From Candidatus Falkowbacteria bacterium (GTDB lineage: Bacteria > Patescibacteriota > Patescibacteriia > UBA11705): a stretch of 64,000 bases of DNA. This document shows positions 3,649-27,739 of the stretch, piece after piece. The stretch covers positions 1,319 to 65,318 of the forward strand of contig DOZJ01000005.1 of the NCBI GenBank assembly GCA_003518055.1. The letters are read 5' to 3'. The position numbers and the translations under genes are program-made. Every line of letters starts with the position of its first letter. Position 1 is the first letter of the stretch. The notes beneath the pieces were generated by a model. The model ran no database searches. It was not told the origin of the DNA and saw nothing but the letters and a program-made list of their open reading frames with translations.

Positions 3649-4070
3649 CGTTACAGTTACCCCGCCATACTTCAATAGTTATAGTTGTTTTGTCAAACTT
3701 TTATAAAAACTAACTTGTGACCGCCAAAATTTTGTAGTTCCAGTTACCCCGCCAAACTTTTGTAGTTCCTGTTAAACAAAAATGAGCCCGCAATTCGGCT
3801 CAAATCATCACCCAAAATCCTTTTGGCTGTTTGTACAAATATTGATTGAATGTTTTATCAACACCACTCATATTGTCATGGGTAATTTCTCTAGTATTAT
3901 AACAGATCATCATAGCAAATCCAGTCTAAAATGTCAACCACAGCCGACAGAACCATCATTTAAACCCCCATTTTAAGGCAAAAAGCCTGTTGTAAACCAC
4001 TGACAAAACTTATGGTGAATAAAATTCAGTTATGCAAATAAAAAAGATTACCATTATTAGTAATCTCTAA

Positions 4071-4520
4071 TTACAACTCAATCGCGGGTGATTGCTGCCA
4101 CTGAGCGTTGAACTGATCAGCCAAACCATCCACGACCGTTCTGTCATCAATCGTCCAGCACTGATCACCATCCCTCACCACCACCACGTCATCGAGAATC
4201 ACGATTTCAGAAAATGCCGCCCCAACATGATTAAACGCTGCCTGATCAAGCAATTGCTTGCGGAATTCGTAATCAAACAGATCACTACCACTCAACAGGC
4301 TGGTATCAACTTCATCGCTGTCGCTGAGACACAGAATATTCATCTTTTGCACTTTCAGGGCCAGCTGCGCCCGATACTCCAGCTTCGATTTCCGTGAATC
4401 ATCATCATCGTGTTTCTTATCAACCGAAATCCTTGTCATGTCCACAACATTGAAAAATCGTTGGATCCGATCACGAGAAAGGATATGTTCTCGCGCCTGT
4501 TTCAGATTAAGCATCGGCAT
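4071..4520 (-). CDS. Hypothetical acidic protein (149 aa)
   Basis: Complete ORF with no recognisable motifs. Flanked by roughly 45-bp direct repeats. Confidence 0.5.
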   Translation of the reverse strand: MPMLNLKQAREHILSRDRIQRFFNVVDMTRISVDKKHDDDDSRKSKLEYRAQLALKVQKMNILCLSDSDEVDTSLLSGSDLFDYEFRKQLLDQAAFNHVGAAFSEIVILDDVVVVRDGDQCWTIDDRTVVDGLADQFNAQWQQSPAIEL

Positions 4521-4861
4521 CTTCCGTTGCCCGCATTGAATGCAGGCTATTCGTACCAGTTATCTGACGGACACCGTACCCATGGACACCTTGTCTGTCG
4601 CACCGGCCATGAAACGTTTCGATAGCCACCTCACTCCTCTCGGAAATCACCGAGAATATAAGCCTCCTTTATTTCATGAACAAATTATCATAACACACAA
4701 TTTTTTATTTGTCAATTGTATATCCCACCCCACCATCAAAACTACTATTTTAAGGCAAAAAAACCTGTTGAGCGTCTTCAACAAAATCATCGTAGCGGCC
4801 TTTTAATTTTCCTTGTTTATTCTTATCTTATATTTAATCAAAATTCCTGCTATCATAAATT

Positions 4862-5275
4862 ATGAATTATAAACTTAAATCAAATATGAAAATTGTTATT
4901 TGCGCCAGCAGTAAATTTATCGATGAAATTAATTTTTGGAAACAAAAACTTGTAAATGATGGTCACGTTGTAATTAAATATCCTGAAAAAATTGAAGGTG
5001 ATTTTCTCACCGGATATCAAAAAGAGTTCACGGATCATTATAAAAGAATCACTGAATGTGACGCGCTTTTCATCCTCAATATTAAAAAAAATAATATAGA
5101 AGGATATATCGGGCCTGGAGTTTATGCGGAAATTGCCTTTGCCGTCGGTCTCAAACGGTCTCAAAACAAACAAATTAAAATTATTTGCGTTAATCCCACC
5201 CCCAACAACCTACCACATTCTGAAGAACTAAAATTCTGGGAGAGCCTCGGCTGGATTGAAATTAAACCGCGATAA
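4862..5275 (+). CDS. Nucleoside 2-deoxyribosyltransferase-like (LOG/SLOG-type Rossmann fold) protein
   Basis: Pattern MKIVICASS ... CDALFILN ... GYIGPGVYAEIAFAVGL resembles the NDT/PF05014-like family, with a conserved Glu in AEIA. AT-rich. Intrinsic terminator follows at 5283-5312. Confidence 0.5.
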   Translation: MNYKLKSNMKIVICASSKFIDEINFWKQKLVNDGHVVIKYPEKIEGDFLTGYQKEFTDHYKRITECDALFILNIKKNNIEGYIGPGVYAEIAFAVGLKRSQNKQIKIICVNPTPNNLPHSEELKFWESLGWIEIKPR

Positions 5276-5282
5276 AAAATAT

Positions 5283-5312
5283 AAAATCGCTGAATTCAGC
5301 GATTTTTTTATG
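5283..5312 (+). terminator. Rho-independent terminator (AAAATCGCTGAA/TTCAGCGATTTT palindrome plus T-run)
   Basis: Perfect inverted repeat followed by TTTTTTT immediately after the stop of 4862..5275. Confidence 0.7.
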
Positions 5313-5551
5313 GCCACAAATTTTCTACAAATGCTCTTAACAACTCATAAGATCTATTCATCATTTCAAAATCATCCACACGTCCCCACCAATGATTTGA
5401 ATTGTGATGAATATGACATCTACTGTAATCTTCATCTATATACCATTTTCTCAACACAAATTTTTCTGGGTTTTGATAATTTGAACAAATTTATTTATAA
5501 TCAAGACAAAAATATTACACTTAAATAAACTATTCACATATTAAGCAAAGT

Positions 5552-5590
5552 TGACAACACCCCTCTATTTGCTAAGATATAATTCGAAAA
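5552..5590 (+). promoter_or_regulatory. Sigma70-like promoter (TTGACA - 16 nt - TAAGAT/TATAAT region) upstream of the small ORF 5628..5777
   Basis: TTGACAacacccctctatttgcTAAGATATAAT read directly, about 40 nt upstream of a GGAGG RBS. Confidence 0.4.
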
Positions 5591-5627
5591 GACCTTTTGA
5601 ACCAACTCGTCACAATGGAGGTGTCAG

Positions 5628-5777
5628 ATGAATCTGGATCCTACCGGACGCAACCTAATACCCGGCTGTTATTGTTCAATCAATCCAAATAATGACCACA
5701 AAAACTGTATAAAGGCTAAAATAGATATGTACAAAAAATCACCAAAATCATCCTCTGGCCATTTCGCAAACTCATAA
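5628..5777 (+). CDS. Small Cys-containing peptide ORF (49 aa: MNLDPTGRNLIPGCYCSINPNNDHKNCIKAKIDMYKKSPKSSSGHFANS)
   Basis: GGAGG at 5617-5621 with a 6-nt spacer to the ATG at 5628. Promoter-like hexamers upstream and a stem-loop plus T-run downstream. Below the 60-aa cutoff of the ORF track. Sits next to the rSAM/SPASM and methyltransferase genes. Confidence 0.4.
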   Translation: MNLDPTGRNLIPGCYCSINPNNDHKNCIKAKIDMYKKSPKSSSGHFANS

Positions 5778-5784
5778 ATTCAAT

Positions 5785-5822
5785 TAAACGCTGGTAATAC
5801 CTAGCGTTTTTTATTTTTGAGC
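5785..5822. terminator. Bidirectional stem-loop terminator between the convergent small ORF and the methyltransferase gene
   Basis: AACGCTGGtaatacCTAGCGTT followed by TTTTTATTTTT on the plus strand; A-rich on the other side. Confidence 0.5.
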
Positions 5823-6275
5823 AGAAGCTTCTAACACCCTATGCCAATGATTATGACCTTCCTCATCATCAAAAACATCAAAAACTCTAAAAACAATGTT
5901 ACGAAACCCCTCTTTATGCAATAATTTTGACAATAAATCACCAGTAAACTTTGAAGAACTATTCAAATCAGACAAATCAAAAGTCTGAATAAAAAACCAT
6001 CCGTCTTTTTTTAAATTTTCAAACGCAGTCTTTACAAATTCAGTCTGATTTTTTATCTTATGTATCACAAAATTTGAATATACCAAATCAAAGGGTCTCT
6101 TTTTAGATAAATAAAATTTTTCTAAATTCACTCCCATTTTCAAATCAACCCCTTCGACCTCCCATCCCATTTTTTTTAAACCATTTACATCTACTAATTC
6201 CCCCGCCCCTAAATCAAGAGCCCTCTTTGGGATTGAATAATTATCAAGAACAAACATCTTTAATCTTTTATTCAT
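5811..6275 (-). CDS. Small class I SAM-dependent methyltransferase
   Basis: Motif I LDLGAGEL(VD). The ORF-track ORF 5811..6335 begins at a TTG overlapping the rSAM 3' end; the first ATG in frame is at 6275 (MNKRLKMFVLDNY...). Confidence 0.6.
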   Translation of the reverse strand: MNKRLKMFVLDNYSIPKRALDLGAGELVDVNGLKKMGWEVEGVDLKMGVNLEKFYLSKKRPFDLVYSNFVIHKIKNQTEFVKTAFENLKKDGWFFIQTFDLSDLNSSSKFTGDLLSKLLHKEGFRNIVFRVFDVFDDEEGHNHWHRVLEASAQK

Positions 6276-6283
6276 ATAAACTG

Positions 6284-6317
6284 AATTAAAATTATAAAAA
6301 ACCGTAAAATTACGGTT
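6284..6317 (-). terminator. Stem-loop (AAACCGTA-ATTT-TACGGTTT) plus U-run directly after the rSAM stop codon
   Basis: 8-bp perfect stem overlapping the stop at 6317-6319, followed in minus sense by TTTTATAATTTT. Confidence 0.5.
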
Positions 6318-7402
6318 TACTTGTTTAAGAAACAATGAGGGTCTTCAGCCAAATAATCACCATTTTGGATATGTGCTCGAGCTCGACATCCACCACACTG
6401 ATACTTCAAGCCACATGAACCGCATTTCCCAGATAAATTCATCCCCAACATCTCTTTAACAATTCTATTTTTTTTGTATTCCTCAATCATTTCATCTATA
6501 GTCATTGAAAAAGTATTCATCATAGGAATATTCAATAAAGCACATGGGGTCATGGTTCCATCAGAATTAACATTAAAAGTGATTGCTGCCGCTCCACACC
6601 CATCAAAAACCAACTCGTCCTCTCTTCCCAGATCAGAAACACCTCGTAAAATACATTTTAGGGGGTCATTAGTTGTTACATTTACATCTGGAAAAATATT
6701 CTTCAACCTATAAACTTCTTCTAAAAAATCTTTCTTTTGTTCCCAAGTCATCCACAGATCAATACGATCAATTGCTCTGCCTGCAGGATGTATCGCTGAG
6801 AAACTTACTCTTTTACATCCCAAATCGACCGCAAACCTAACCATACTTTCCATTTCATCAATCTGATTTGGTCTTATTGTTGATCTCATAGATGGAACAA
6901 TAGCGTCATCATTAGCCCCCGCAGCTAGTCTCAAAGCTTTCACCGCGGAATCAAAGGCTCCTGTACTACATCTAAATGCGTCGTGCTTTTCCTGATCCAA
7001 ATCATCAAGACTGATAGATAATACGAATCTGGAAAAAGATAATTTTTTGATCAAATTGATGTGTCTCTCTCTTAAAAAAGTTCCATTCGTGGTTAATGTA
7101 ACATACTCGCCACCATTACCTCTTACTGCTGTCAAAACATCATCAAACTCAGAATGCAACAAAGGTTCTCCTCCAGACAGTACAATCTCTTTATAATTTG
7201 GACTGAACATTCGAGCAAACTCAATTATTTTTAGAATTTGTTCTAAAGGCATATCTCGTTTTAACTGGTGAGAAGCCCTACAATGCTTACAGTTCATATT
7301 ACATCTACCAGTAATTTCCACCTGGATTTGTCCAAACTCAATTTCATAAATAGCATCTTCAGTTTCTACCTCCAACCTGGGTTTTGCACTTTTACATTCC
7401 AT
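6317..7402 (-). CDS. Radical SAM / SPASM-domain peptide-modifying-type enzyme
   Basis: CNMNCKHC (CxxxCxxC) and the GGEPLL motif. C-terminal Cys-rich SPASM region (C...GKCGSCGLKYQCGGCRARAH). Two in-frame ATGs at 7414 and 7402; the latter has a GGAGGG RBS 4-5 nt upstream. Confidence 0.85.
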   Translation of the reverse strand: MECKSAKPRLEVETEDAIYEIEFGQIQVEITGRCNMNCKHCRASHQLKRDMPLEQILKIIEFARMFSPNYKEIVLSGGEPLLHSEFDDVLTAVRGNGGEYVTLTTNGTFLRERHINLIKKLSFSRFVLSISLDDLDQEKHDAFRCSTGAFDSAVKALRLAAGANDDAIVPSMRSTIRPNQIDEMESMVRFAVDLGCKRVSFSAIHPAGRAIDRIDLWMTWEQKKDFLEEVYRLKNIFPDVNVTTNDPLKCILRGVSDLGREDELVFDGCGAAAITFNVNSDGTMTPCALLNIPMMNTFSMTIDEMIEEYKKNRIVKEMLGMNLSGKCGSCGLKYQCGGCRARAHIQNGDYLAEDPHCFLNK

Positions 7403-7437
7403 TGGTCCCTCCATTTTAAAAGGGGAAAATCACTGAT

Positions 7438-7461
7438 TCTCCCCGTCTGATTGTGACCACG
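7438..7461 (-). promoter_or_regulatory. Two short hairpins between the precursor-like peptide ORF and the rSAM gene (possible attenuator or processing structure)
   Basis: In mRNA sense, TTGTGAC-tgacagacgtg-GTCACAA overlaps the peptide stop codon. It is followed by GGGGAG-aatcagtga-TTCCCC and then TTTTAAAA. Confidence 0.35.
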
Positions 7462-7465
7462 TCTG

Positions 7466-7531
7466 TCAGTCACAAATGCTGCAGCTTCCCTTGCCGATTC
7501 TGACCTTGATACGCTTCTTCTTGGGAGACAT
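7466..7531 (-). CDS. 21-aa Cys-containing peptide (MSPKKKRIKVRIGKGSCSICD); candidate RiPP precursor for the adjacent rSAM/SPASM enzyme
   Basis: AAGGAGG 7 nt upstream of the ATG at 7531; stop TGA at 7466-7468. Same strand and 64 nt upstream of the rSAM start. Confidence 0.45.
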   Translation of the reverse strand: MSPKKKRIKVRIGKGSCSICD

Positions 7532-7836
7532 CTTACATCCTCCTTACCTGCCTAATTCAATAGTTACAATTTTGATTGTGGCGCTAATATAGCACCTTCG
7601 TCAAGCTGTAACTTTGAATTTAGGACTTTGGGCTGAATTTAAAGAGCATCTAATTAAAGGATATCAGAACAATCGTATCTGTCAAGCGCTCGTTAAGGTA
7701 TGCCCCATATTCTGTATTGGGCTTGTTGCTTTGTTTATTCAAATATAACAATTTAAGACAAATTTGACAAAATAACATACTCTATATAACATACTCTACA
7801 ACAATCAGTTCCTTGAAAAACGAAGGATGGGCACCC

Positions 7837-8934
7837 ATGAATATTGTAACCACCTTGCCGATCACACCGAGACGCGACCCTCCACTTGGGTTATTCCTCC
7901 AGCCTTTTATTTGCGACCTGATCAGTCATTCAAATTTATCATTACAATATATTCAAAGCTTCAATCTAATGGGACGAAAAACCAACATGGATACTGAAAC
8001 CTTTCTGGCAAAAATGAAATATATGGGGATTATCCCGCCTCAAATTTGGTTTGACACCGCTTCAGACAATATTGAAATACTATCAGCCTTGATCAACCAT
8101 TTTATTGCCGAAGATAAAATTATCATAGAAAAAACAGCTGTGGTGAGCTGTTCGTGTGGCCGGGTGGAAACACTGGCTACACCAGACAACATTAAAGCGA
8201 TCAAACAATCAAAATCAAAAGGAAAATTAATTTTTGAACAACACAATGAATTATATTGCAAAATTTGCTGCTCATTGCTTAAAATCAGACTGGATTATGT
8301 CCTGCTGTTTCACACCGGTTTTTATAAACCCGATTATGAAATTAAAATTTCTCCCTCAAATTTTAAAGCCGAATTTAATCAGTTATGGTGCTACTTCAAT
8401 AATAAAAAAATTCTTATTTCACGATCATCGCTGCCGCACCCTTTAATCCCGACCATTGCCGGAGAATTTCGAATCGACGTTGACTTCCTCTGGCAAAATA
8501 TTATTAATATTTTTCATCTCCAGCACAATACCGTAAACATTATTGTCACCAGCCACAAATTAATGCAAAAAATGGTTTTTGCTTTAATTTTCGCCAGAGA
8601 ATTTGGCACGCCGCCGCCTTCAAATGTTATTCTGCTTCCGTATATTCATTTAACCGAGCACCACTCGGAAGTCTATGACTACATGAAACTCGCCCCCTGT
8701 CTTTTACGCGCCTTTCTTCTGTTGGGCTGGAGTCGACAGAAAAAAATATCACTTGAATTCAAACAGCTGAGCCGGTTGAAAATTCCCGACCCGGAATCAC
8801 CGACCAGGAGAAATTCTTCTCTCGGCAACATACCCCGAAATTTCAATCCGTCAGCGCTTTTCAAGCTTTGCGCCAAACACTCAGATAAATACTCCGATGA
8901 AGAATTGCAGATATTATCGCTCCTAAAACCTTAG
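7837..8934 (+). CDS. Hypothetical protein (about 365 aa)
   Basis: The ORF-track ORF 7813..8934 starts at TTG; the ATG at 7837 has an AAGGA RBS. Stem-loop terminator overlaps the stop. Confidence 0.55.
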   Translation: MNIVTTLPITPRRDPPLGLFLQPFICDLISHSNLSLQYIQSFNLMGRKTNMDTETFLAKMKYMGIIPPQIWFDTASDNIEILSALINHFIAEDKIIIEKTAVVSCSCGRVETLATPDNIKAIKQSKSKGKLIFEQHNELYCKICCSLLKIRLDYVLLFHTGFYKPDYEIKISPSNFKAEFNQLWCYFNNKKILISRSSLPHPLIPTIAGEFRIDVDFLWQNIINIFHLQHNTVNIIVTSHKLMQKMVFALIFAREFGTPPPSNVILLPYIHLTEHHSEVYDYMKLAPCLLRAFLLLGWSRQKKISLEFKQLSRLKIPDPESPTRRNSSLGNIPRNFNPSALFKLCAKHSDKYSDEELQILSLLKP

Positions 8935-8940
8935 GAGTTT
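8911..8940 (+). terminator. Rho-independent terminator (CTCCTAA-aacc-TTAGGAG plus TTTTTT)
   Basis: Read directly; overlaps the stop of the 7837..8934 gene. Confidence 0.55.
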
Positions 8941-8988
8941 TTTAATTGACAAATATACCAATTATTCATATTATAAAATCAAACGACA

Positions 8989-10773
8989 TTGATTATGACA
9001 ACCAATCATTCAACAATTTTCAAGCGCATTGGCTCCCAAACACAAAACAAAAACATTCTGCTTTATTGTCCCGGCCTGCCTGAATCAAAAAAAGTTTTAA
9101 ACAAATTAAGGATATTTTGTTCAGAGGCTGATTTGGAGCTGCAGATTATGTGCTACCCCGGAACACCCGGAAACAAAGGTCAATTTTTGCAATTCAATCC
9201 GGCCAAAACAATAGATAATTATATTTGCCAAATAAAACACAAAAAAAATCGCGCTGTTTTTGTCCTTGGCGACAGTTTTGGCGCCTCAGTTGCTCTCAAC
9301 ACATCATTGGCTGACAAAATCATCGCCATTTCTCCGGTTATAAACTGGAAATCTCTCTATCAAAAAAATTCCCCGGAAGAAAATTACGCCACTTTTCTCG
9401 CCTATTTAATCACTGTCGGCTACAATATAAATCACAAAAACTGGACAAAACTCAAATCCGACAATCTATTAAACAGCATAAATCAAACCACCCCGACGCT
9501 GATAATGGCCAGCAAAAACGACCCGACTGTGAAAATCGAGCCTCTGTTATCGCTCAAACAACAAAATCACGATACGCGTCTATGCGCTGAAAAGAAACAT
9601 CTATCATTCAGGACATTAAATCAAAAACAAATTATCGCATTAAAAAAATTTTTGTTAACTGATAAAATTCAAAAAAGGACATCTAAAAATAATAAAATTA
9701 TACATCAACTTATCGCCGGACACCACAAAGACTCCATCATTTCATTTGGGTCCCAAGCCGCCGACAACTCGGTGCCGGAATCAGACCTCGATTTATTGAT
9801 CATATCAGATAAACCCGTTATCCAAAATCAACAGAACAGAACAATAGAATTAAAATACTGTAACCAAGATATATTTAAAAAATATTCCCGAGAAACCCTT
9901 AGAGGGGCGGTTAAATTGATCACCTCAAATATTATCCGAAGTAATAACGAAGATACTGTATCAATTTCAAGTCTGAAATCCTACCTGCTAAAACGCCACA
10001 AACCAACCATTCTATTGGCTTTATTGCTGGAACAATATCGCTTCGGCCAAAAAAAATATCCTCAGGGCAGTCCGATTGAGGCCAAGTTCGCCCCGGGTGG
10101 ACGCAGACATCTGGGATTCATGACCGTCGCCAACAACATTATCAACAATCGACCATGTTCAAATTTCTGGGAATCGCTTCATGACCTGCTGACGAAAAAT
10201 ATTATCAACTATCAAGACATATCGAACATAAACATTTTTTTCTATTATCTGCAGACCGCGCCTCGAAGAAGAAACAAAATTATTATAAAAAAACACATAA
10301 CCGCGAACACAAAAATTGTGGCCAAATTTTTTCATAGTTATTTCGCGCCCCGAATAATGCAAGATTTTAGCATAAAAATCAAAATTACAGAAAAACGAAT
10401 ATCAGCGGATACTACACGTCATGAAATTAAAGATATGTTTGACGCCTTATTCACCAGATCAATCAAACACCAAGTAAATCTCTGGCGGCAATATCAAAAT
10501 AACACCAACCATCTCGTGAAGCATATTATTTTTTATTATCTGGCCTGCAATCAACATTTATCCCTGCCAATAGCAAAAAATATTATCAATCTATATATCG
10601 ACTCCCCAATTGATTCAAACATTATTCGTAATATTGTCCAAAACAGCAGCCTCAATTGCCAACCAGAAATAATTGCATCAATAAAACAATCACCTGACAT
10701 CAAGATCCAAAAATATCTTAGAGAATTTAAACGCAATCGTTATATTTTTTCACAAAAAATAATCAGAGGTTAA
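8989..10773 (+). CDS. Fusion protein: N-terminal alpha/beta-hydrolase (GDSFG nucleophile elbow), a minimal Pol-beta-type nucleotidyltransferase domain, and a helical C-terminal region
   Basis: VFVLGDSFGASVA (GxSxG) in the N-terminal domain. In the middle domain ISFGSQAADNSVPESDLDLLIISD matches hG[GS]-x10-DhDh. Very AT-rich, N/K/I-rich composition. Confidence 0.6.
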   Translation: MIMTTNHSTIFKRIGSQTQNKNILLYCPGLPESKKVLNKLRIFCSEADLELQIMCYPGTPGNKGQFLQFNPAKTIDNYICQIKHKKNRAVFVLGDSFGASVALNTSLADKIIAISPVINWKSLYQKNSPEENYATFLAYLITVGYNINHKNWTKLKSDNLLNSINQTTPTLIMASKNDPTVKIEPLLSLKQQNHDTRLCAEKKHLSFRTLNQKQIIALKKFLLTDKIQKRTSKNNKIIHQLIAGHHKDSIISFGSQAADNSVPESDLDLLIISDKPVIQNQQNRTIELKYCNQDIFKKYSRETLRGAVKLITSNIIRSNNEDTVSISSLKSYLLKRHKPTILLALLLEQYRFGQKKYPQGSPIEAKFAPGGRRHLGFMTVANNIINNRPCSNFWESLHDLLTKNIINYQDISNINIFFYYLQTAPRRRNKIIIKKHITANTKIVAKFFHSYFAPRIMQDFSIKIKITEKRISADTTRHEIKDMFDALFTRSIKHQVNLWRQYQNNTNHLVKHIIFYYLACNQHLSLPIAKNIINLYIDSPIDSNIIRNIVQNSSLNCQPEIIASIKQSPDIKIQKYLREFKRNRYIFSQKIIRG

Positions 10774-10900
10774 AGTGATCCGATCGTAATTTCAAATAAT
10801 ATTTTGATCTTGCCTTGTTGAACATGTGCTTCTCTCATACCCCACCCATTCCTTGTGAAATAATAATTCAATCTAATCATACCAAATAAAGTTCGTCAAT

Positions 10901-11482
10901 ATGTCAAAAATAAATTTCTACTACAATCGCGCTGATGATGTTAAAAATTGGACACGACACCACGAACAACACATCCCGACCTTGTCAAAAAGTCTCCAAT
11001 TCCTGCTAGAACAAAATATAGTGACGTTACAAAAAACCTGGAATTTTTTGGGAAGTAACATAATCCAAGCCCTTGAAAAAACTCTTGAAAAGCCCAACAC
11101 CACCACAAAATATACGTCCGCGCTCACAACCTACCACTCATGCCCCTACGACCCTGCCCACAACTGGTTCATGGTTTCTATCAAGGCCAGCCTGCCATCC
11201 CAAATCACCAATATCGCGCACGAATTACTGCATCTCCAATTTATCCATCACTACGGAGATTATTGCCACAAAATGAAAATAAATGAAAAACAATTTCATA
11301 TATTAAAGGAATCGCTCACCGTAATATTAAACACCTCTCGCTTTCAAAAAATTATCCCCGCGCTTGACAAAGGTTATTCGGAACATCAAAAAATAAGACA
11401 AAAAGTTTTTGGGGCATACAAACCAACAATGAAATTCCAAAAATTTCTCGATCATACAATCAAAATTATAAAAACCAATTAG
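10901..11482 (+). CDS. Hypothetical protein with an HExxH motif (IAHELLHLQFIHH); possible metal-dependent hydrolase
   Basis: Complete ORF; the HELLH motif was read directly. Terminator-like hairpin follows. Confidence 0.5.
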   Translation: MSKINFYYNRADDVKNWTRHHEQHIPTLSKSLQFLLEQNIVTLQKTWNFLGSNIIQALEKTLEKPNTTTKYTSALTTYHSCPYDPAHNWFMVSIKASLPSQITNIAHELLHLQFIHHYGDYCHKMKINEKQFHILKESLTVILNTSRFQKIIPALDKGYSEHQKIRQKVFGAYKPTMKFQKFLDHTIKIIKTN

Positions 11483-11487
11483 AATAA

Positions 11488-11516
11488 ACAAACAGGGACA
11501 ATCAGCCCCTGTTTTT
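11488..11516 (+). terminator. Stem-loop (ACAGGG...CCCTGT) plus T-run
   Basis: acagggacaatcagcccctgttttttatt read directly after the 10901..11482 stop. Confidence 0.5.
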
Positions 11517-11860
11517 TATTACCTCACTTAACATTTCAATTACACCGGCAAGATTGGCCATGACCTCTCTGTTGGTAAATCTGATGACCCGCAAGCCGAG
11601 ACTTTCCAAATAATTCGTCCATTCCTGATCGTAAAATATATTTTCCGGCAGAAAATGATGCCCGCCGTCGACTTCGATCACCAGCTTCGCGGCCGGGCAA
11701 TAGAAATCAACGATGTAACACCCAAAACCTTTTGTCGATAAAATTGCAACTTGTTGATTTGTTTTCTTCTAATTCTCAACCACAATTTTTTCTCCGGCAA
11801 AGTCATCCCTTTCTGAAGTTCACGCGCGAACGGTTTGAGTTTCTGATTATAATAATTCAT
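11502..11860 (-). pseudogene. DUF559 (Vsr-like endonuclease-domain) gene disrupted by a frameshift; paralog of 12948..13295
   Basis: The N-terminal 60 aa (MNYYNQKLKPFARELQKGMTLPEKKLWLRIRRKQINKLQFYRQKVLG) align to the intact paralog. The homologous C-terminus (YIVDFYCPAAKLVIEVDGGHHFLPEN...LGLRVIRFTNREV) continues in a different frame from about 11700 down to a TGA at 11502. Confidence 0.55.
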
Positions 11861-12210
11861 GATAGTTAATGTCTAATCCCCCTTGGGTTCCCCCTTGAAA
11901 CATCAAGGGGGATGTGTGCTTCATCGCAAAGCCAAAACAACCCCGCCGCGAAGCTACCAACCTTCCCCCTTAATTATTAAGGGGGACTGAGGGGGATTTC
12001 TTCTAGCCGCCAATCCCCATTTTCATCAAATTTTACCCTATTTTCCCCTTAATATTATACAAGATTGTTATCCACAGTCCCTCTTGCTTTCTTATATCCA
12101 CCGACTATTGCTTGACTTTTTTCCCTTTATATGATAAGCTGTAGGTGTAAAGGTAAGGCGTGAATCAGCACACACACACCCGCCAACGGCGGGAGAAACC
12201 GGAGGACCTC

Positions 12211-13420: not shown

Positions 13421-16400
13421 TCACGGCTTCAACAATATCCTCCCATCAAAATATGTCCACGGATCAATGCCAGATACGCTATTTGTAGAACATGCATCAA
13501 AACCCCTTTCACCAACGTCATAACACCCCGCAAACCCATTTCCAAAACCTCGACAACCATCAACGGTCGATGACGGATCAGCATTACACCACCCCCAATT
13601 ATCTTTGACTTGGACGCGCGGGACAAACTGACAGGCCTGCTCGGCGGCGTTCCAGCAGTCGCTGTCGCGCTCACCGGCACAGAGATTGGCCGTCGCGTTG
13701 CCGCCGCCTTTCAAGTTCGGATCAGTCGGACCTTCACACGTCAACACAGTTTCATATTTGAAGAACTCCTGCTCAACGCAAGCGGTCGGGGAATCGCCAA
13801 ATCGCAGCTGAACCGAGTTTGGGTCGGGTATGGCGTTGCAGGTCAAATTGCCGTAGCAGTCATTGGCGCTCAAACAAGCATAGCCCTCAATTTTTTCACC
13901 CGCCAGCGTCTGACAGAGCCCCAACGCGATTGGCGACTCTTTCAATTGACACAGCGGCTTATGATTTTTGTAATGCCCCTCCGGAGCCGGCAGAGCCCCC
14001 TCGCCATCTCTCCAATCCACCGTCACTTTGCGAATCGGCATCTGATCATCATCAGCCCATGCGAAAAACTGCATCAAGGTTGTTGACTCGCCGCCAAAAA
14101 GCACGAGGTCATCAGACGCCCGGCCATTGATCGATACGGTCTTCGGTACAGCCAAATAAATCGGTTTGCCAGTCACCGGATCGCTTTCGATTTTTTCCGG
14201 CGCAGGCAGCACCACTCCGGCCACCACCGGCGGGAAACTCACCAAATCAGCTGATCTGTCGCGCTCATATCTGCTTTCTTTATCATAAATATAATTATCA
14301 TCCACCCGCCAGCCGGAGTAAACCGCCGCGAATATATCTTCCAGTTTGGAATAGGTTATGGGACTGGTTGCGCTTGTGGTTGAATACCCATAAAAACCAT
14401 CTTGAACATGCGAACACTGGCCATTCGGACAACCCCAAATCGTACCGCCATTTACTTCCCCGCCCATATCCGAGAACGGACTGCCTCCCTGACGATTGGA
14501 TTCACCCGCTGCCACTAAAATCGGCGCGTGTGATTCCACATCCTCCGCAGAGCCAAAAGCGCTTCCCATCGGAGAATTTACCGAGTTAAACACAATACTG
14601 AATGCCCCATGTGGAGCTGTAAGTAGATTTAATTTTTCTCCGGTCCAATCAGGGTTCAAAGAATAATGATACAACCGATTCGTCCTCGCTTTGTTATCCA
14701 AATTCCCGGCGACATTTTCAGCCACCGACACCACCTCGGCGCAATATTCGTTCAACAAGAAATGTACTCTTAATGTCTGATAACCATAATTAGAACTCTC
14801 ATCACAGAGCCCCACCCAAACCCCTTTGTAGATACCATTCTCATCGAACACCACTCTAATACCAAAATAATTGTCATCTGTCCCTTGGTTGCAATATCCA
14901 CCCAAAGTCCTGCCGACCGGAGCATTTCCGGCGCCGGAAACGCACCAGCCATTCAAATCCGCATCTTCACCATCAACCTGACAACCCCAACCGCTATTAA
15001 AGTTACACACTGTTTGTTCGTTGTCTTCTGTACAACTTCTATTTGAACAATAATATTTATTCCCAACCGGGACACAGACACCTCCACCCTGCCCCTGACA
15101 AACGTGGTCCCCGTCATCGGTTGTGACACATTCTTTTTCCGTAAACCCTCCCGGATTCAAATTTGCCGGAGCGACATAAAATCCATGTGTCGGATGATAT
15201 GACATACTTCCGGTTGTCTGCGAGGTGGTTAATTGAGTTCCTGTAAGAATATTATAAGTTCCTCCAGCATATGGGAAGTATCCCTTGCCGGCAAACATAT
15301 AATTTTTTTCACTCACGCCTTTTTCAACCTCAGTTCCCGGCCCCCAGTTAAAGCTGGTGCTCGGAGTCTGCTCCCAGACCGCTTGCCAATATGTCCATCC
15401 GCTGACGCCATAATCAGCATCGAGTGGCTGTCCGCTGGCCAAACATTTAGTTCCGTTGCAAGTGGCCAAACCTTGCCATTGTGACGACAGCTGCCTAGGA
15501 ATAATTAAAGATTCCGGAACAAAAGAACTGATCGTGTCATACAACGCTGGTGGAACAAACTTATTTTTATTTTCAAAACCATCACCGGGATCGCTCTCAC
15601 CATTCCAATCCGCTACCGACTCACACCAATCACCTGCCTGACCACCGGTACATTCAATCGCAATCCCCGCGACCTGACTCTCATGTATTACCGGGATATC
15701 AGCTGCCGGCTCTCTGAAGTACTCCATATACTCATCATACCCGGAATACCCGGTTGTAAAAGTCATCTCATCAGACGTCACCATGTATGTAACAGTATTA
15801 GCATCCGGCTCGGCCACGCCTAAATTTCCAAGACCGGCCGCATTTATGCAGTACAACCGCCCGACATCTTCGCCACCTTGAGTAAATAATTCATAGCCGG
15901 CATCTTTAAATTGATTATACATATCCTGCAGACCATTCATCGTATCGAGAGGATACCAAGTCAAACAGGCTTTTTCCGATTGCGAGCCGTTTATCGAGAC
16001 CGTATTATCGAATTCCATACAATATCCCTGCCAGCCTTTGTATTGCGTTTGGTCAACATCTTTTCTCATGCACATTCCCATATCCTGACTACCATCAACA
16101 ACACAATCCAGCGAGCTGCAAAAAGTCGCAGTTTTAATGTTAACGCCATCCGGCCCGGCCGCCGAACATTCACACTCCTTACTCTGATCATCCTGACAAA
16201 AACCATCCAGATAGCTTGACACGGAAATATCAAAATATTTTTCCACCGCCCGATTTCCATAGGTGACTTTTTTGTAATTACACGCACAGTCTTCGTCGTC
16301 ATTATAAAGAGTTTGTTTTACCCCGTTTTTATCATAATAGAAAGACGTACACGCCGTCGCGTTTTCAAACACTCCCTTAGCCGCATCAGCCGTTTTGGTT

Positions 16401-19400
16401 AGGCTCGGAAATGGAGAATTAACCTGAGGATAAGCGCGGCAATCAGCTGTCGGTGAAACCCAGTCATCATCCTCAAAATTATTCACCAACGGCTCAACGC
16501 ACTCACCGCCGGCGCAGAGGTCACCATCGTCACCACAATCCGTGTCCACGACACAGTCAAAAGGCACCCCTCCCGCTTCCGGTCGATATTTATGCACCAA
16601 CCGATAATCCTTGTCATCGGATTCTCTAGCCACATCAAACGAATCATAATACTGAATCGGATACTTGTCCGCCACCGAATAACCGCTGTAATCAAAAGCA
16701 TTCCAGCCTTTATCCCGAGACTGATATCCTGACCGCATGATATTATTATTAGCCAACAACGACTCGCTCGTTCCGCTGACAAAGTTGCTGCACTCGCCGG
16801 CCGTCTCACCCTCACCGACCTGGTCACAGAGCCCTAAATCCTGACAAACAAACACCTCTCGATTTTGTACCGGATCAAACGTGTACTGACCGCTCTTACA
16901 GTCATACCACTCAGCGCACTCCCGATCTCGATCCACCTTGATTATTCGATTGGTGTTGTTGAACAACGGACTTTTCTTGAGCGTATAACAAGCGACAAAT
17001 TCTTCATCAGCGCAACCATTAGCTCGAGCTGCTTCGTGCTCCGCGGTTAATGGATACCCGTTGGCAATCGTCTTTTCCGTCGCCCAAGCCGCCAGCGCGC
17101 ACATAAACTGCTCATTAAATGACTTACTCGAGACAAAACATTCTTGATTCAAATATGCCTGACATTCCGGATTGACTAAACCGTGGCAGACCGTCGCGTC
17201 ATCATAAAAGAGATCGAGTAATGCCTGAACATTCGGCAGGCCAGCCTGCGGATTCTTCAATTTACCGCCATCATCATTACTGGCTTTATACGTCATCCCG
17301 GCACTGGAACTGACCGAAATATTACCTGATTCATCTTTAATCGATGTATCAAGGAACAACAAACAGCCCTCTTTCTCGCTGACACCGGAGCAGCCTGATA
17401 ATTTTTCATCATTGATATAATAATACGCCTCGCCCACCGCTGATCCGCCTGACACATCCATCGGATCAATAAACGCGGTGCAGCCGCTGGCTTTCGGTTT
17501 GCACTCACCCACCCAGCCGGTAACTTGTTTTATAATTCCATCAGCGTCTCGATAAGGGATAGAATAATCAGGATCGTTTGAATGGATCAAATGTTTAACG
17601 CCGTCATTATAATAATCTTTCGTCGCTCGAATACCGCCAAAAAACATCCCTTCTCTTTCAATTGTCACTCCACATGGTTGATCGGTTCCTGTCTTATACC
17701 AGCCTTCAATTTTTGATCCGTCAGGGTTGCCAACCACCTTGTACTCACAAGTCCGATCGCCGGGATCTTTGAAATAATACGTCTGGCCGCCCTCATCCTC
17801 ATAAGATTGACATCGGCTGTCACCACCGCGGCAGAGGAATTTATCCAGCTGATTCGGATCAATCACATAATAAGCAGTATCCCATTCTGGATCGCCGTTC
17901 ACGCTGGCCACATTATAATTTTGATCCAACTTTGGCCGGCCAAGCATCATACAGCCAAGCGTATTTTCCTGACACGTCTTTTTTTCATCAAACACTACAA
18001 ACATCACATTATCCGCCGGTATCGTATATTGATCTCCATTTTTATAACACTTTCCCTCTTGATAAACATGCCCCAAAGCTTGACAGTATCCCTTGGTCGC
18101 CACATCATATTGGCACTGTTTTAACATCGTATCGTCAACATAATGAAATGGAAGATCCAAGTTATCCAATCCTGACCAAGTCCCCAAATCAATGCCAAAC
18201 GTATTGGCCAAGGCCACCAAGCGGACCCTTCCTAAAAATGTTAAATTTGTTTTATCAAAAGTATTAAGAAAATCTTGAAAATTAGTAGACGAAGTTAAAT
18301 TCCCCGATAAATCATAAAACCGAATAGCCAAATCATCAGCGCACGAGTCATATTCAGTTTGAGTGATACCGCTTGACGCCGCACATACCCCCAACGGACA
18401 TAATGCCGGCGCTAAATTCTGTTGACATTGATCGTCCGGGTCCAAAATTTCAGCCCCCACCGCCTCAGCGCACACATCAATTTCCGTCGCGTTAAACGCC
18501 AGCTCAAAAGGCGTTGTCGAATTTTGGGTGTCAATCACCGCTTCACAACCAACCGCCTCAAACCGACATAAACTACGAAATCCTTTCAAGTACTCAAGTG
18601 TTTCAGTACCGGTGGCGTATTCTCGACAACCAATTTGCGCCTGCGGCAGATATTGACCGGCCATCGTCTGGTCGCAAACTGCCGGCGTGCTCCAAGAATT
18701 TTTAATTAAATATTTGACATCATTCAGTCGCTTAATATTAATCGAATCAAAATATACCGTTGCCCCAGAGGTTCGAATAAACAAAGACTGAACTACATTT
18801 TCCAAACGCATTAAATCAGAAGTATAATGATAAAACTCAACCCCTCCCGCCGCCGCTTGATTGATATTCACATTTGATGTTGAATGCGTAAAACCTTCTT
18901 GACCGAATATTAATTCAACCGAGGCTGTTGCTTGATCTGCTTTGGCCCAAAAATCAATAATAAATTCTTCGTCGGCCGCCAAACTATTTGGCAAATCCAA
19001 AGTTACTCCATTATTTGCACCCTGATTAACTTGCAATGATTTCCCACCATTTATCATCGAGGCGGTGGAAAAAGTCACAGCACCATTAGCCGTCCAATTA
19101 TACGTTTCACCATCAAACGAATCGGAGAATATCACCTCTTGGTCATTGGCATTGTCACCACGGAATTCACGGCAGCCAGACGCATCATCGGAACATTTTC
19201 GACTCAAATCCGGCTCCACCATAAACACACACTCGCCGGCTACAACCGCGCCGCCCCGATCAGTGCACTGCGTGGCGGCCGTAGCGCCCTCATATTTAAT
19301 AGTCTTACGGTATGGAAAACAATTATCAGAGCACAAAACCAAATTATCCATTATTTCATAGAATACCGAACCGCCCTCACTGATAAATTCACGGCATTCA

Positions 19401-22400
19401 GGGGACGTCACAGGATTATAATTAGCCGCATTGCAAACCGTTTGATTCTGAGCCATATTAGTCACCTTTGGTGATCCTCCATTCATCTGGAACCGATAAA
19501 CTTGCAATTGATATCCGGATGTATCGTCACCAATCCAAGTAACATATGAACCGCAACTGCTGTCGTTAGCCGGATCAGCGGTTTTGTAGCACATTCGAAT
19601 TGATTTGAAAAATTCTTCCGATTCGCCGCCTCGATCCAGTTCATCCAAATTCGTAAACCCCTCACACCCGGCATCATTGGCTGAACATGACTCAGCTGAA
19701 TCAGCAATAAAATACACCGGATATTCCGCCTCAGCCAGACTGCTCTCCGCCTGCGAAAAAACTTCGTAACCGGCGCATTGAGCCGGACAAACGTCATCAT
19801 AACTGGCCACTCCGGTCACCGCCGGGCCTCCGGCCGTTGGAATATATTCTTGACAACCGACCTCCTCAGCCGAACATTGCGTGGCAAACTTGCCGCAAGC
19901 CGCATTGTCATTTGTCGTATTTATATCAACCGTTTTTATCGGCGTGTACCATTTCGTAAATTGAGTCGCTATCGCCTCGCCGGAAACGCCACTCTCATCA
20001 AAAGAATTTTCAGCGTCATAACACGCGTAATGATCGGGCGCCACCTTGAGATAATCATATGCCACTCGGCCATAATCATAATAATACGGAGCGTCATTCG
20101 GCCCTTCTGATTCGGCAATTAAAATATTATCAACCACTGCTTGTCCGGTCGCTCTAATTTTTACCCCCAGATATCCGACACCGGGCGCCACTCGAACAAT
20201 GACCAGAGTCTCTTTTCGCGTGCCGCTGACATTCTGCTCCTGATAATAAATATAGGAGTCATTCAACATATCCAAACCCGACGTGGTAGCGGTTTTCGTC
20301 ACCTCCACCTCACCACCCACGGACTCGGCGGCAAAATCAAACTTTTTAAATGTCGGCACCACCGCCACATTATCTGTCGCTCTCGTGGTGATCGAATAGG
20401 TGAAATATCTAACATATTTTTTGGGCGCGATCATTATACTGCGGCTGAGCGCCAATTCACCCCCACTCATACGAGCTCCCGGACCGTCAATGCCATCACC
20501 AATCGCCACCTCATGAACCGCTTGACCATTATTCCAGCCGGCAAAAATATCAGCTGTGCCGTCATCCGGATTCCCTGTATAGTATGAAAAACCGCCATTT
20601 GCCACCAAATTGGCTCGATATGAATTATCCATGTGAATAACTCGAGTGCAGCCCTCATCTCCGGCCGCGCAGGTTTCCGACTCAATATTTTGGTTCAAAT
20701 AAACCATTGCTGATCCGGGCTTATAATAACTACTGGGATATTCTTTGCTAAAATCCCGATCCGCGCCGTCAGCCGATACCAGCCAGCTGCTATATCCCAA
20801 ACACCCGACATCATCAGCCGAGCAGGAAGCGTAATCCACCGTATTCAATAAATAATTAAACCGTTTGCCGTCATCTCTCGTCACCGTCGAACAAGAATCA
20901 TAATAACCGGGGCATTGCTCTCCCCCGAATTGCCAGACATTCTTTTCCGCCGCGCAATAAGCATAGTGATCGCAGGAGCCGTCCTCATTTTCATCCACAC
21001 AACTTTTGAGATCTGCGCAGTATTCCTCTCGATCCTCCGCGCCACTCGTGATCAAAAGCGGCCCGTAACCGATCGCATCGCATCTTGTCTTGGGATATTT
21101 GAGAACCCAATTCGGATCAACCAAACCGGTATAATCAAAGTCAGCACTCACACAAGACGGATCTGTGCTATTAAAACAATCCATGAGAAAATTCAAAGTT
21201 ACGCGATCATCACCATTAGGATTTCTCTCGCCGACAATTTTAGCCGCCAACTCCCAGCCAATCGGAATAATCCGCGCTTTGCGTAATTTTATCAAGTTGG
21301 AATAACAATAGGCGTTCTCATAACAATCCGGATTTAAATTCCGATTATCAATGTGACTGATAAATGGCAGATTACCCTTCAAAAACCCCTCGTCAACCGC
21401 CTCACGCACCGACATTGACCGGCCATAGCCGGCGCTCCTGACCGCGTCGGCAAAATCATCAGACATCACGCAATGATTAATTTGTCTCTGAATACTCGAA
21501 TCACAAATTGTAAACTCACTCAATAAATCCACTTCTTTTTCCGAAACTGAAAATCTGACTTCCTGTATTTTGGAAATCGCCCGTTCCGCTCCGGCCACAT
21601 AATCATAAACACCTTGAGCCGGATTGTATGAACTGGACCTTGAGACATACCCTTCGCTGATTCTTTTAAACAATGCCTCCACAAACCGTTGTGACACGAA
21701 TGAATTCAACAAAGTTGTACCAATCGCTTCTGGAATTGATTCAATCGTTGCCAGCGCCTGCGTAATTTCTTCCGACTGCGCCTTCTCGGCTCGTTTTACA
21801 TTTTCTTCCACCACCGTTTTTGTGGTCCCCGGTGGATTCTGAATCGTGTTGCCCAAGACATCAGTTTTCGGCTTAAGCGATCCTTCGCCTTCTCGCCGCT
21901 GTTCTTTTTGCGCCTCAACCTGCTCCTGATGCTCGGTTTCTAGCAAATCATAAGTCCAAATATATGTTCCAACCTGACTCTGCTGCGGTTCAAATCCCTT
22001 GACCACCTGATCAATCGTCAGAAACGATGCTACTTCCGGATTATCAACATATCGATCCTGCAGCTCATCGGCAAAACCTTCCCAATTATCTTTGACCTGA
22101 TTCCAAGAACAGCGCTGATTTTGCGCCCGGCGGTCAAACGGATCCCTCATTTCTCCGGCTTCAATCGACCGGATAATTCGCAATTTCAATTCAACATTTG
22201 GTTCGCAGATATCAAAATATTCCGACCACGGTCCGGACATACTGAGGTCAGCCAAAACATCGGTCAAAACCGCCTCCTCCACTTTATCAACATAAGCGGT
22301 CCAAGTATCAGTTTCCCACACCGGCGTTTGACCAAAGCTGCCGGTTTCCAAATATTCGATTGACCGCTGAGATAAATCCTGAGTTAGACTGATGGCTAAA

Positions 22401-27551: not shown

Positions 27552-27739
27552 GCTGTGATTATTGTAGTTTGTTTTTTTTATTTCCAAGCGTCGCCATTTG
27601 GTGATATCAACACCACGCAAAAAACACCTCATTAAATGGAAAACCAATCTGAAAATTTATTTAAACTGCTTGAACGCCTGTCCAACATTAAGGCCGCACC
27701 TCAGGTATGGGATACAAACCACCACGACCAAACCAACGG

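Follow-up and report, generated by a model that had tools for sequence, protein, structure and literature searches.

What is a reading frame of only 21 codons doing immediately upstream of a gene for a radical S-adenosylmethionine (rSAM) enzyme, and what is the function of the RNA hairpins that surround it? This question is raised by a 64,000-nucleotide (nt) stretch of contig DOZJ01000005.1 from Candidatus Falkowbacteria bacterium, hereafter the window. An earlier reading of its sequence, referred to here as the original prediction, had proposed a precursor peptide with a strong Shine-Dalgarno (SD) sequence, a hairpin over the stop codon of the peptide and a second hairpin ahead of the enzyme gene that would act as a partial terminator or attenuator. 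Based on a comparison with related loci, we consider it likely that the open reading frame (ORF) specifies the precursor, and probably nearly the entire functional peptide, of a modification cassette composed of the peptide, an rSAM enzyme with a SPASM domain and a methyltransferase, and that the cassette is expressed according to the logic proposed below.

Related loci were fetched around relatives of the rSAM enzyme, 77 from species-representative genomes and 80 from metagenomes; they are designated by L and a number, with L001 being the window. Among the main-clade genome loci, the peptide ORF lies upstream of the rSAM gene and on the same strand in 35 of 36, at a distance of 13-206 nt, and the exception is a locus in which the rSAM match begins only at residue 71. 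The peptide also precedes the rSAM gene in all 60 metagenome loci that could be tested, including two that were first missed by the regular expression and turned out to carry the variant endings VRKGRNNCRTCDSNGPHD and ARIDKGSCAICD directly before the stop codon. Absence of the ORF from relatives that retain the enzyme had been named as an outcome that would point away from a precursor; instead, the two genes are kept together. The strong SD sequence and the 21-amino acid (aa) precursor-like ORF are themselves present as originally described.

Within the ORF, substitutions follow a coding pattern. Across the last 12 codons of 31 distinct DNA versions, the entropies at codon positions 1, 2 and 3 are 0.49, 0.37 and 1.42, i.e. 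third positions are approximately three times as variable as first and second positions, and pairwise codon differences in the core comprise 2650 synonymous versus 1146 non-synonymous changes. Arginine is encoded by both CGN and AGR codons, serine by both AGY and TCN codons, and all three stop codons are used, while Gly13, Cys17 and Cys20 are invariant in all 31 versions. In 19 of 25 bacterial relatives, AGGAGG is present at a constant -13/-14 from the peptide start. Because the codon pattern is of the coding type with freedom for synonymous change, and because the SD sequence and the position of the ORF are conserved, we conclude that the small ORF is translated; the comparison indicates that it is a real gene under purifying selection at the protein level. 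The window contains a single copy of this gene. An identical copy of the region is found on a 70-kb contig from a groundwater metagenome, represented in samples ERZ909580 / SRR2177986, where the small ORF was not called.

The peptides of the family end in VRIGKGSC[S/A/C]IC[D], with D, E, N or S as the last residue before the stop codon (among 69 distinct peptides, D in 48, E in 5, and N or S in 11). This ending is part of a conserved C-terminal module of 17 residues, K-[KP]-R-[VI]-[KR]-V-R-I-G-K-G-S-C-x-I-C-[D/E/N/S]. The window peptide consists of MSPK followed by the module (residues 5-21). The part preceding the module is rich in Lys and Arg and variable in length, and the ten residues before it contain on average 4.8 K+R and 0.55 D+E. 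The remark in the original prediction that 21 aa is unusually small for a precursor is fair for the window, although the family spans 19 to ~45 aa and the conserved part comprises only 17 residues.

Upstream of the peptide gene, extended -10 motifs of the TGnTAnnnT type are found 61-71 nt before the start codon in the window and in L010, L024, L026 and L047, and in the window TGCTATATT is a candidate promoter element of the peptide gene. Just upstream of the peptide SD sequence (7546-7556 in the window), the 5' untranslated region carries TAGGCAAG or TAGGCAGG followed by AAAGGAGG; this motif recurs in the otherwise divergent loci L001, L004, L006, L008, L034 and L035 and may be a conserved element.

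The partner enzyme is a radical SAM protein in which CNMNCKHC (CxxxCxxC) is at residues 34-41 and which matches the Pfam Radical_SAM domain over residues 32-194 (E = 2.8e-25). In a set of 68 sequences, the SPASM cysteines C269-x12-G-x4-C287, C327xxC330x5C336xxC339 and C357 show no variation. Its start codon is placed at 7402, where relatives conserve GGAGG, a gap of 7-8 nt and ATG GAA TGY; a mechanical list of ORFs gives the ATG at 7414. At least 120 cluster representatives are related to the enzyme at 58-73% identity; most are unnamed, those with names are named only generically, and the taxon labels, where present, are mostly Patescibacteria, also known as the candidate phyla radiation (CPR). 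No NCBIfam model reaches its cutoff on the protein: the best is NirJ2 with 154 bits versus a cutoff of 500, followed by AhbD (133.5 versus 500), TIGR04053, GeoRSP, PapB, PqqE and MftC. The enzyme lacks a RiPP recognition element (RRE) domain, where RiPP denotes a peptide that is made on the ribosome and modified after translation, and the approximately 30 residues preceding the radical SAM core form three short beta-strands in the structural model. This AlphaFold (AF2) model, built with 68 homologues, has a predicted local distance difference test score (pLDDT) of 93.4, and its top folds in the PDB are CteB, SkfB, SuiB, the anaerobic sulfatase-maturating enzyme (anSME) and PqqE, all of which are SPASM or twitch enzymes that modify peptides or proteins. 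The rSAM enzyme thus has the fold and the cysteine set of peptide-modifying SPASM enzymes.

Peptide and enzyme vary together. Peptides ending in CxIC[D] are paired with rSAM enzymes of 60-73% identity to the window enzyme, those ending in CCRCE, from Saccharibacteria, with enzymes of 52-56% identity, those with CRTCD plus an extension with enzymes of mostly 55-61% identity, and those ending in ...C[S/T]TSGSYK with enzymes of 34-40% identity. That the peptide type tracks the enzyme clade is as expected of an enzyme-substrate pair. As to the chemistry, PapB makes Cys-Asp thioethers at CX3D spacing, and Cys17 and Asp21 of the window peptide have this spacing. Because of this spacing, the invariant Gly and two Cys residues and the presence of thioether-forming enzymes among the closest folds, our leading guess, and the weakest step in our proposal, is that the rSAM enzyme would install a Cys-derived crosslink, e.g. 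a thioether, at SCxIC[D], with methylation to follow.

The methyltransferase is the only other partner that recurs in the main clade when neighbouring ORFs are clustered all against all. It is linked to the cassette in 21 of 36 genome loci and in 55 of 80 metagenome loci, many of the metagenome contigs being short. It lies downstream of the rSAM gene, upstream of the peptide (L015, L016, L023, L025 and L037) or on the opposite strand (L017); its linkage thus survives rearrangement of the loci. Its family is small and tight: searches with the protein gave 135 hits, each of ~154 aa, with 47-62% identity and generic names only. D136, H141 and H145 are invariant and His143-Trp144 nearly so, and the resulting C-terminal GHKHWH-like motif is possibly a metal- or substrate-binding site. 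In a structure search, the methyltransferase matched only generic class I Rossmann folds, from which the substrate atom is not inferable. In the window, the terminator hairpin at the end of the rSAM gene overlaps the rSAM stop codon, and TATAAT lies 15 nt before the ATG of the methyltransferase; likewise, in approximately 10 of 11 relatives the rSAM 3' end has a stem with U5-7 and then a TATAAT-like box ahead of the methyltransferase ATG. Because a terminator and a TATAAT box precede its start codon, the methyltransferase gene is predicted to form its own transcription unit, the leader of which would be very short. No gene for a protease, an exporter, an immunity protein or an RRE/PqqD-like protein recurs in ~50 clustered loci and in the loci annotated with Pfam. 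The unit defined by gene content is, accordingly on these comparisons, a peptide, an rSAM enzyme and a dedicated methyltransferase of 154 aa. Right after the methyltransferase stop codon there is a 9-bp hairpin (5786-5809) with a U-tract on the plus strand only, which resembles a terminator serving plus-strand transcription that runs towards the cassette.

The second stem of the original prediction, i.e. GGGGAG pairing with TTCCCC between the peptide and rSAM genes, is present in the window, where it comprises 9-10 bp counting G-U and A-U pairs, rather than 6, and has a folding energy of about -12.8 kcal/mol. This hairpin (hairpin 2) lies ~14 nt past the peptide stop codon. The distance of 20 nt originally given to GGAGGG approximately holds for the rSAM start codon, which is 19 nt away, while GGAGGG itself is 9 nt away. 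The hairpin is followed by U4 and then AAAA, and a terminator scan gave no call (8-nt tail with 4 T). Of the 36 genome loci, 28 have a strong single stem-loop in the corresponding position, with 9-17 pairs and energies of -12.5 to -29 kcal/mol; these hairpins begin at a distance of 5-38 nt from the stop codon and leave 12-40 nt to the rSAM ATG, except in the outlier L006, in which the hairpin ends 157 nt before the ATG in a spacer of 206 nt. The median distance from the hairpin end to the rSAM start is ~24 nt, an interval that includes the SD sequence. In an enlarged test on 80 distinct contexts, in which a hairpin of -12 kcal/mol or lower within 60 nt of the stop codon was scored, 85% of the contexts were positive versus 20% of shuffles, with median energies of -20.5 and -8.1, respectively. 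Against 39 same-strand control spacers taken from these loci, the frequencies were 83% versus 44% and the medians -20 versus -7.9 (Mann-Whitney p = 7.5e-5).

The sequences of the stems vary among loci, with 5' arms that are mostly GAGGGG-like and 3' arms that are mostly CCCCUC-like. An alignment of 16 spacers with MAFFT and RNAalifold gave no consensus structure, the stems being of differing length and sequence and out of register. We relied on energy tests against shuffles and control spacers, as a structure-guided alignment would make counts of pairs circular. A search of Rfam returned no family, whether the entire window was scanned at gathering thresholds or the interval 7300-7800 with an E-value limit of 1. 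These comparisons indicate that hairpin 2 is conserved as a structure, in position and stability, and not as a sequence. By a strict count, a T-run of at least 4 follows the stem in 8 of the 28 hairpins; from our reading of the sequences, the share with a U-run rises to approximately one half once those U residues that are drawn into the base of the stem are counted. Among the bacterial loci, an extended -10 motif between the peptide and rSAM genes is found only in L006, and because there is no room for a promoter between the hairpin and the rSAM start, the rSAM gene must be transcribed through the hairpin. Because the U-tract is often weak while the end of the same operon has a canonical terminator, we regard hairpin 2 as a weak element, putatively a leaky terminator and/or a stabiliser of the mRNA 3' end, which probably keeps the peptide message in excess over the enzyme message. 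Thus, of the originally proposed partial terminator or attenuator, a conserved intercistronic stem-loop in the position of a leaky terminator stands, and a two-hairpin attenuator lacks comparative support.

The hairpin over the stop codon (hairpin 1) fares differently. The perfect 7-bp repeat is present at the predicted site, and its loop opens with the stop codon TGA (7468-7466), but it occurs at a chance-level frequency and is not conserved. Perfect 7-bp inverted repeats with loops of 3-15 nt occur about once per 516 nt in the window, and pairing between the end of the ORF and the 28 nt that follow, scored from a stem length of 6 bp upwards, is seen in 8.9% of 79 distinct related contexts versus 6.6% of shuffles; a clear analogue of hairpin 1 is found only in L007. 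When a 166-nt region was folded in silico, both hairpins formed in the minimum free energy (MFE) fold and in the centroid fold, and the region overall was no more stable than dinucleotide shuffles (z = -0.39). Hairpin 1 is, therefore, probably incidental. An attenuation switch made of the two hairpins is unsupported, because they coexist in the fold without competing and because hairpin 1 lacks conservation.

Table 1. Features of the peptide/rSAM/methyltransferase cassette, in window coordinates and in order along the minus strand
Feature	Position	Strand	Basis and details
Candidate extended -10 element TGCTATATT	7586-7594	minus	Motif scan; 63 nt upstream of peptide ATG
Shine-Dalgarno sequence AAGGAGG of the small ORF	7539-7545	minus	Sequence; 7 nt before ATG 7531
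Peptide gene, ATG 7531 to TGA 7466	7466-7531	minus	Translation MSPKKKRIKVRIGKGSCSICD then stop, 21 aa, Cys17 and Cys20
Hairpin 1, perfect 7-bp inverted repeat	7451-7475	minus	TTGTGAC 7475-7469, GTCACAA 7457-7451; 11-nt loop
Hairpin 2, GGGGAGAAU-CAGUG-AUUUUCCCC, and U4 tract	7444-7422, U4 7421-7418	minus	Folding
Tail UUUUAAAA after hairpin 2	7414-7421	minus	Sequence
Shine-Dalgarno sequence GGAGGG of the rSAM gene	7407-7412	minus	Sequence; GGAGG-type SD and spacing kept in relatives
Radical SAM/SPASM enzyme, 361 aa, predicted peptide maturase	6317-7402	minus	Pfam, cysteines, model
Canonical terminator AAACCGUAAUUUUACGGUUU and U-run, then TATAAT	6291-6318	minus	Hairpin 6318-6299, T-run, TATAAT 6296-6291
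Class I SAM-dependent methyltransferase, 154 aa	5811-6275	minus	Pfam Methyltransf_23

We suggest the following model for the expression and function of the cassette. Transcription would start ~50-60 nt upstream of the peptide gene, and the strong SD sequence would give efficient translation of the peptide. Hairpin 2 would end, or stabilise, most transcripts after the peptide gene, while a fraction would continue into the rSAM gene, for which a separate SD sequence is present; the canonical terminator would then close the unit after the rSAM gene, and the methyltransferase gene would be transcribed from its own -10 box. The net outcome would be more peptide message than enzyme message. Finally, the rSAM enzyme would act on the C-terminal SCxIC[D], after which the methyltransferase would add a methyl group.

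Other explanations of the small ORF have to be weighed against this model. To the idea that the ORF and the hairpins are chance intergenic features we give essentially no credence: 7-bp repeats are common, the region folds no better than shuffles and the gene callers missed the ORF on the identical contig, but the idea is refuted by conservation over ~95 independent loci, by the coding-type substitutions and by the enrichment of hairpin 2. Highly improbable, in our judgement, is a regulatory leader peptide, i.e. a trp/his-type attenuator or an arrest peptide, in which translation would control the choice of hairpin and thereby rSAM expression, and the peptide would be functionless. The layout in the window, with a short ORF, a hairpin overlapping its stop codon, and a stem with a U-tract, is attenuator-like, and in the microcin C operon ribosome binding to the small ORF has been reported to induce termination (PMC6495379). 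However, 17 residues are kept at the amino acid level with free synonymous change and without runs of regulatory codons, whereas it is such runs that attenuator leaders conserve; the stop-overlapping hairpin is at chance frequency and the two hairpins fold together instead of being alternatives; the peptide is kept in loci without any hairpin; and by its structure the partner enzyme falls among the peptide-modifying SPASM enzymes. The peptide could also work with the rSAM enzyme without being its substrate, as an accessory subunit, as a donor of metal or Fe-S ligands through its CxxC, or as a scaffold. The invariant CxxC and the Gly-rich turn would suit such a role, as would the lack of a protease, exporter or RRE/PqqD-like partner in the examined loci and the fact that the nearest curated models of the enzyme act on non-peptide substrates; for a scaffold, a report on 3-thiaglutamate biosynthesis provides a precedent in the form of a catalytic leader peptide (bioRxiv 10.1101/338681). 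We nevertheless find this role unlikely, as the SPASM domain already has its full complement of cysteines, the C-terminal type of the peptide co-varies with the enzyme clade as for a substrate, the top structural neighbours bind peptide substrates, and a structural subunit with a conserved module of only 17 residues would be very small.

A further alternative shares the precursor reading of the peptide and concerns only hairpin 2, which would be not a terminator but an element of RNA stability or processing, or a translational element that modulates ribosome access to the rSAM SD sequence. We regard it as a credible minority view. Many hairpins in the family lack a U-run, and that of the window, the tail of which contains only 4 U, escaped the terminator scan; moreover, the GAGGGG-like 5' arms (GGGGAG in the window) resemble an SD sequence and the CCCCUC-like 3' arms (UUCCCC in the window) an anti-SD sequence. 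By contrast, about half of the hairpins have U-runs after a GC-rich stem, e.g. those in L007, L012, L020, L025 and L033, and neither the MFE nor the centroid fold contains an alternative pairing with the rSAM SD sequence. The absence of the hairpin from archaeal-labelled loci, which mostly lack an SD sequence, fits a terminator and a translational role alike.

Several observations weigh against the reading of the locus as a precursor cassette with a leaky terminator. Translation, the efficiency of termination and modification are all inferred for every member of the family. The loci examined contain no linked protease or exporter, and the best curated hits of the rSAM enzyme, far below their cutoffs, are the tetrapyrrole enzymes NirJ2 and AhbD. 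The variable last residue (D/E/N/S) and the C-terminal extensions in some members weaken the case for a strict Cys-Asp thioether. As for hairpin 2, 44% of the control same-strand spacers also bear strong hairpins, so that it is enriched but not unique; as a strict T-run follows only 8 of the 28 hairpins, many members are equally likely to use theirs for something other than termination; and the loci labelled as DPANN keep the peptide and the rSAM enzyme with short spacers and no hairpin, which makes the hairpin dispensable.

These DPANN-labelled loci (L009, L013, L014, L031, L036, L103, L115, L117, L147 and L154) are labelled, where a label is given, Woesearchaeota or Nanoarchaeota. Their rSAM enzymes are 66-70% identical to the CPR versions, and their spacers are short and AT-rich, without the hairpin and mostly without an SD sequence. 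They represent either inter-domain transfer or mis-binned contigs. Because they keep the peptide and the rSAM enzyme without the hairpin, the hairpin would be a bacterial-style expression device and not part of the chemistry. In L013 and L036 a GNAT gene is nearby, in L013 also an amidohydrolase gene, and the retrieved stretch of both loci contains no cassette methyltransferase.

Within Patescibacteria, the cassette occurs sporadically across bin labels, with different flanking genes in different loci. The window cassette is included in an 8-kb island of low GC content at ~4000-12000 (37% GC versus 45-51% on either side). Because of the low GC content, the varying flanks and the sporadic distribution, we suggest that the cassette is horizontally mobile or has been acquired. 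The island also holds small unknown ORFs and two larger genes on the plus strand, none of which accompanies the cassette in other loci: a 365-aa protein (7837-8934) has no match in Pfam, NCBIfam, PADLOC or the PDB, and a 592-aa protein (8995-10773) has a nucleotidyltransferase domain and weak hits to PADLOC PDC-S09. A viral origin of the cassette was considered and rejected, as no relatives were found among viral contigs.

The window as a whole is an ordinary segment of a bacterial chromosome, with genes for FtsZ, FtsA, a release factor, NrdD and HisRS. No tRNA was found in its 64 kb. GC skew is very strong and uniform, in every 2-kb bin mostly at approximately -0.2 to -0.3 and ranging from -0.12 to -0.31, and almost every long ORF beyond ~13 kb lies on the minus strand. 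Two giant ORFs, also on the minus strand (13421-22711, 3096 aa, and 46875-54902, 2675 aa), probably encode large surface proteins such as CPR genomes commonly specify; neighbouring genes at 22684-23496 and 25911-27647 carry bacterial TSP3 repeats.

In the distant rSAM clade with 34-40% identity (L039-L052, L068 and L028; e.g. L043:1458-3269, L048:4329-6143 and L039:4138-5559), the bin labels are Rickettsiales, Bdellovibrionales, Parcubacteria and Woesearchaeota. The peptides of this clade end in ...GKN[S/T]C[S/T]TSGSYK before the stop codon, with the variants ...CSTCGDYK, ...CNTSTGGWK and ...CSTCSGGHK. A class II aminoacyl-tRNA synthetase (aaRS) gene resembling that for threonyl-tRNA synthetase (ThrRS) adjoins the cassette in 9 of 13 loci of the clade and in L028, in varying order and orientation; the encoded proteins have 369-604 aa, and some lack the editing or anticodon domains. 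The linkage is far above chance for one specific aaRS. For the main clade, we considered and rejected the idea that the peptide inhibits an aaRS, with the residue two positions after the first Cys (I, R or T) matching a neighbouring Ile-, Arg- or Thr-tRNA synthetase as an immunity copy. Counter-examples are L069, with CSICD beside an ArgRS, and L012, with CARCD beside a class I aaRS; four loci with long flanks have no aaRS; and an aaRS within 3 kb in 7 of ~40 loci is close to chance, which we estimate at ~19% for gene-dense genomes of ~1 Mb.

What, then, might the cassette make? A possible but doubtful answer is an undescribed modified mini-peptide, i.e. a cationic module of 17 residues ending in S-C-x-I-C-D that is processed by an RRE-less SPASM enzyme and a dedicated methyltransferase, without a linked protease or exporter, and that serves a conserved target in a cofactor-like, metal- or thiol-active or host-interaction role, not as a hypervariable bacteriocin; its chemistry could be new. 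If this were so, a conserved target would follow from the near-identical core across distantly labelled ultra-small symbionts, i.e. CPR bacteria and DPANN-labelled bins, and the sporadic, island-like distribution. The tie of the sister clade with the ending ...C-S-T-S-G-S-Y-K to ThrRS-like genes would, on this reading, hint at a connection to aaRS biology. Were the product to have a role between symbiont and host, the cassette would offer a molecular handle on CPR biology, for which very few exist.

The genomes of Patescibacteria are tiny, and surveys have reported biosynthetic gene clusters from them in small numbers only; in one survey, the Patescibacteria metagenome-assembled genomes yielded none (PMC11613949). 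Here, we describe a compact and recurrent three-gene cassette in CPR bacteria, the key gene of which, at 19-45 codons, mostly escapes gene callers. Neither Pfam nor NCBIfam has a model that matches the peptides, for NCBIfam even at E up to 10, and the longer forms of the peptide give only ~40 clusters in a collection of 5.8 billion proteins, all unnamed or "hypothetical". A full-text literature search did not find a description of the peptide-rSAM family. The motif VRIGKGSCxICD followed by a stop codon lets annotators recover the missed genes, and the well-defined and testable set of 21-, 361- and 154-aa products is suited to heterologous reconstitution. The locus is also a natural example of an intercistronic hairpin that is conserved in structure and can be contrasted with a canonical terminator in the same operon, making it useful for studies of termination in uncultivated bacteria.

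Several known systems resemble the cassette in part. In biosynthesis of pyrroloquinoline quinone (PQQ), the precursor PqqA of ~20-25 aa is encoded directly upstream of an rSAM enzyme with a SPASM domain, PqqE, which is among the structural neighbours of the window enzyme; the core of PqqA is highly conserved and not hypervariable. The pqqA transcript is in excess owing to a hairpin that follows the gene, and lantibiotic operons are similar. However, the window enzyme scores 70.9 bits with the PqqE model versus a cutoff of 381, none of the loci examined has PqqB, PqqC or PqqD partners, and the window peptide has a conserved Gly and two Cys residues instead of a Glu/Tyr pair. Mycofactocin is similar in that the short precursor MftA has its conserved key residues at the extreme C-terminus and is modified by an rSAM/SPASM enzyme; it differs in that the MftC model scores 70.5 bits versus a cutoff of 265, there is no MftB chaperone or MftE peptidase in the loci examined, and the C-terminus of the window peptide is Cys-x-x-Cys-Asp and not Gly-Val-Tyr.

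Ranthipeptide and sactipeptide systems likewise have a Cys-containing precursor beside a SPASM or twitch rSAM enzyme, and CteB and SkfB are the best PDB folds. By contrast with CteB, SkfB and SuiB, which have an RRE, the window enzyme has none at its N-terminus, and its scores with PapB (NF047865; 83 bits versus 340), StsB (74.8 versus 625) and AlbA (72.6 versus 850) are below the cutoffs. Moreover, the window peptide has two Cys residues in a single motif, versus the six of SCIFF-type ranthipeptides, with an acceptor residue that across the family is mostly D and otherwise E, N or S. anSME, with a TM-score of 0.68 over the full length of both proteins, is also a SPASM enzyme of ~360-370 aa; it has no RRE and targets a Cys within a short motif. 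Its substrate is a full-length sulfatase with the motif C/S-x-P/A-x-R; this motif is absent from the window peptide, and there is no linked sulfatase gene. Two further candidates were rejected: the heme d1 and heme b enzymes NirJ, NirJ2, AhbC and AhbD, for which scores are below cutoffs and no heme-pathway genes are present in the neighbourhoods examined, and the CPR SPASM loci of a graspetide survey, which are ATP-grasp systems and represent a different cassette.

For the layout of the genes, microcin C offers the closest likeness, with a very short precursor ORF that has a strong SD sequence and is followed by a hairpin before the enzyme gene; there, the terminator hairpin between mccA and mccB gives an abundant monocistronic precursor mRNA and read-through for the enzymes (PMC6495379). 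MccA, however, has 7 aa and is modified by an adenylyltransferase and not by a radical SAM enzyme, and ribosome-controlled termination has been shown in that system, whereas here the layout is read from the sequence and the candidate sensor, hairpin 1, is not conserved. We read the cassette as one of the rSAM-RiPP kind, of a family that is itself unnamed in the libraries and literature searched; its architecture, in which an intercistronic hairpin separates the gene for a short precursor from that for a SPASM enzyme, is a familiar one.

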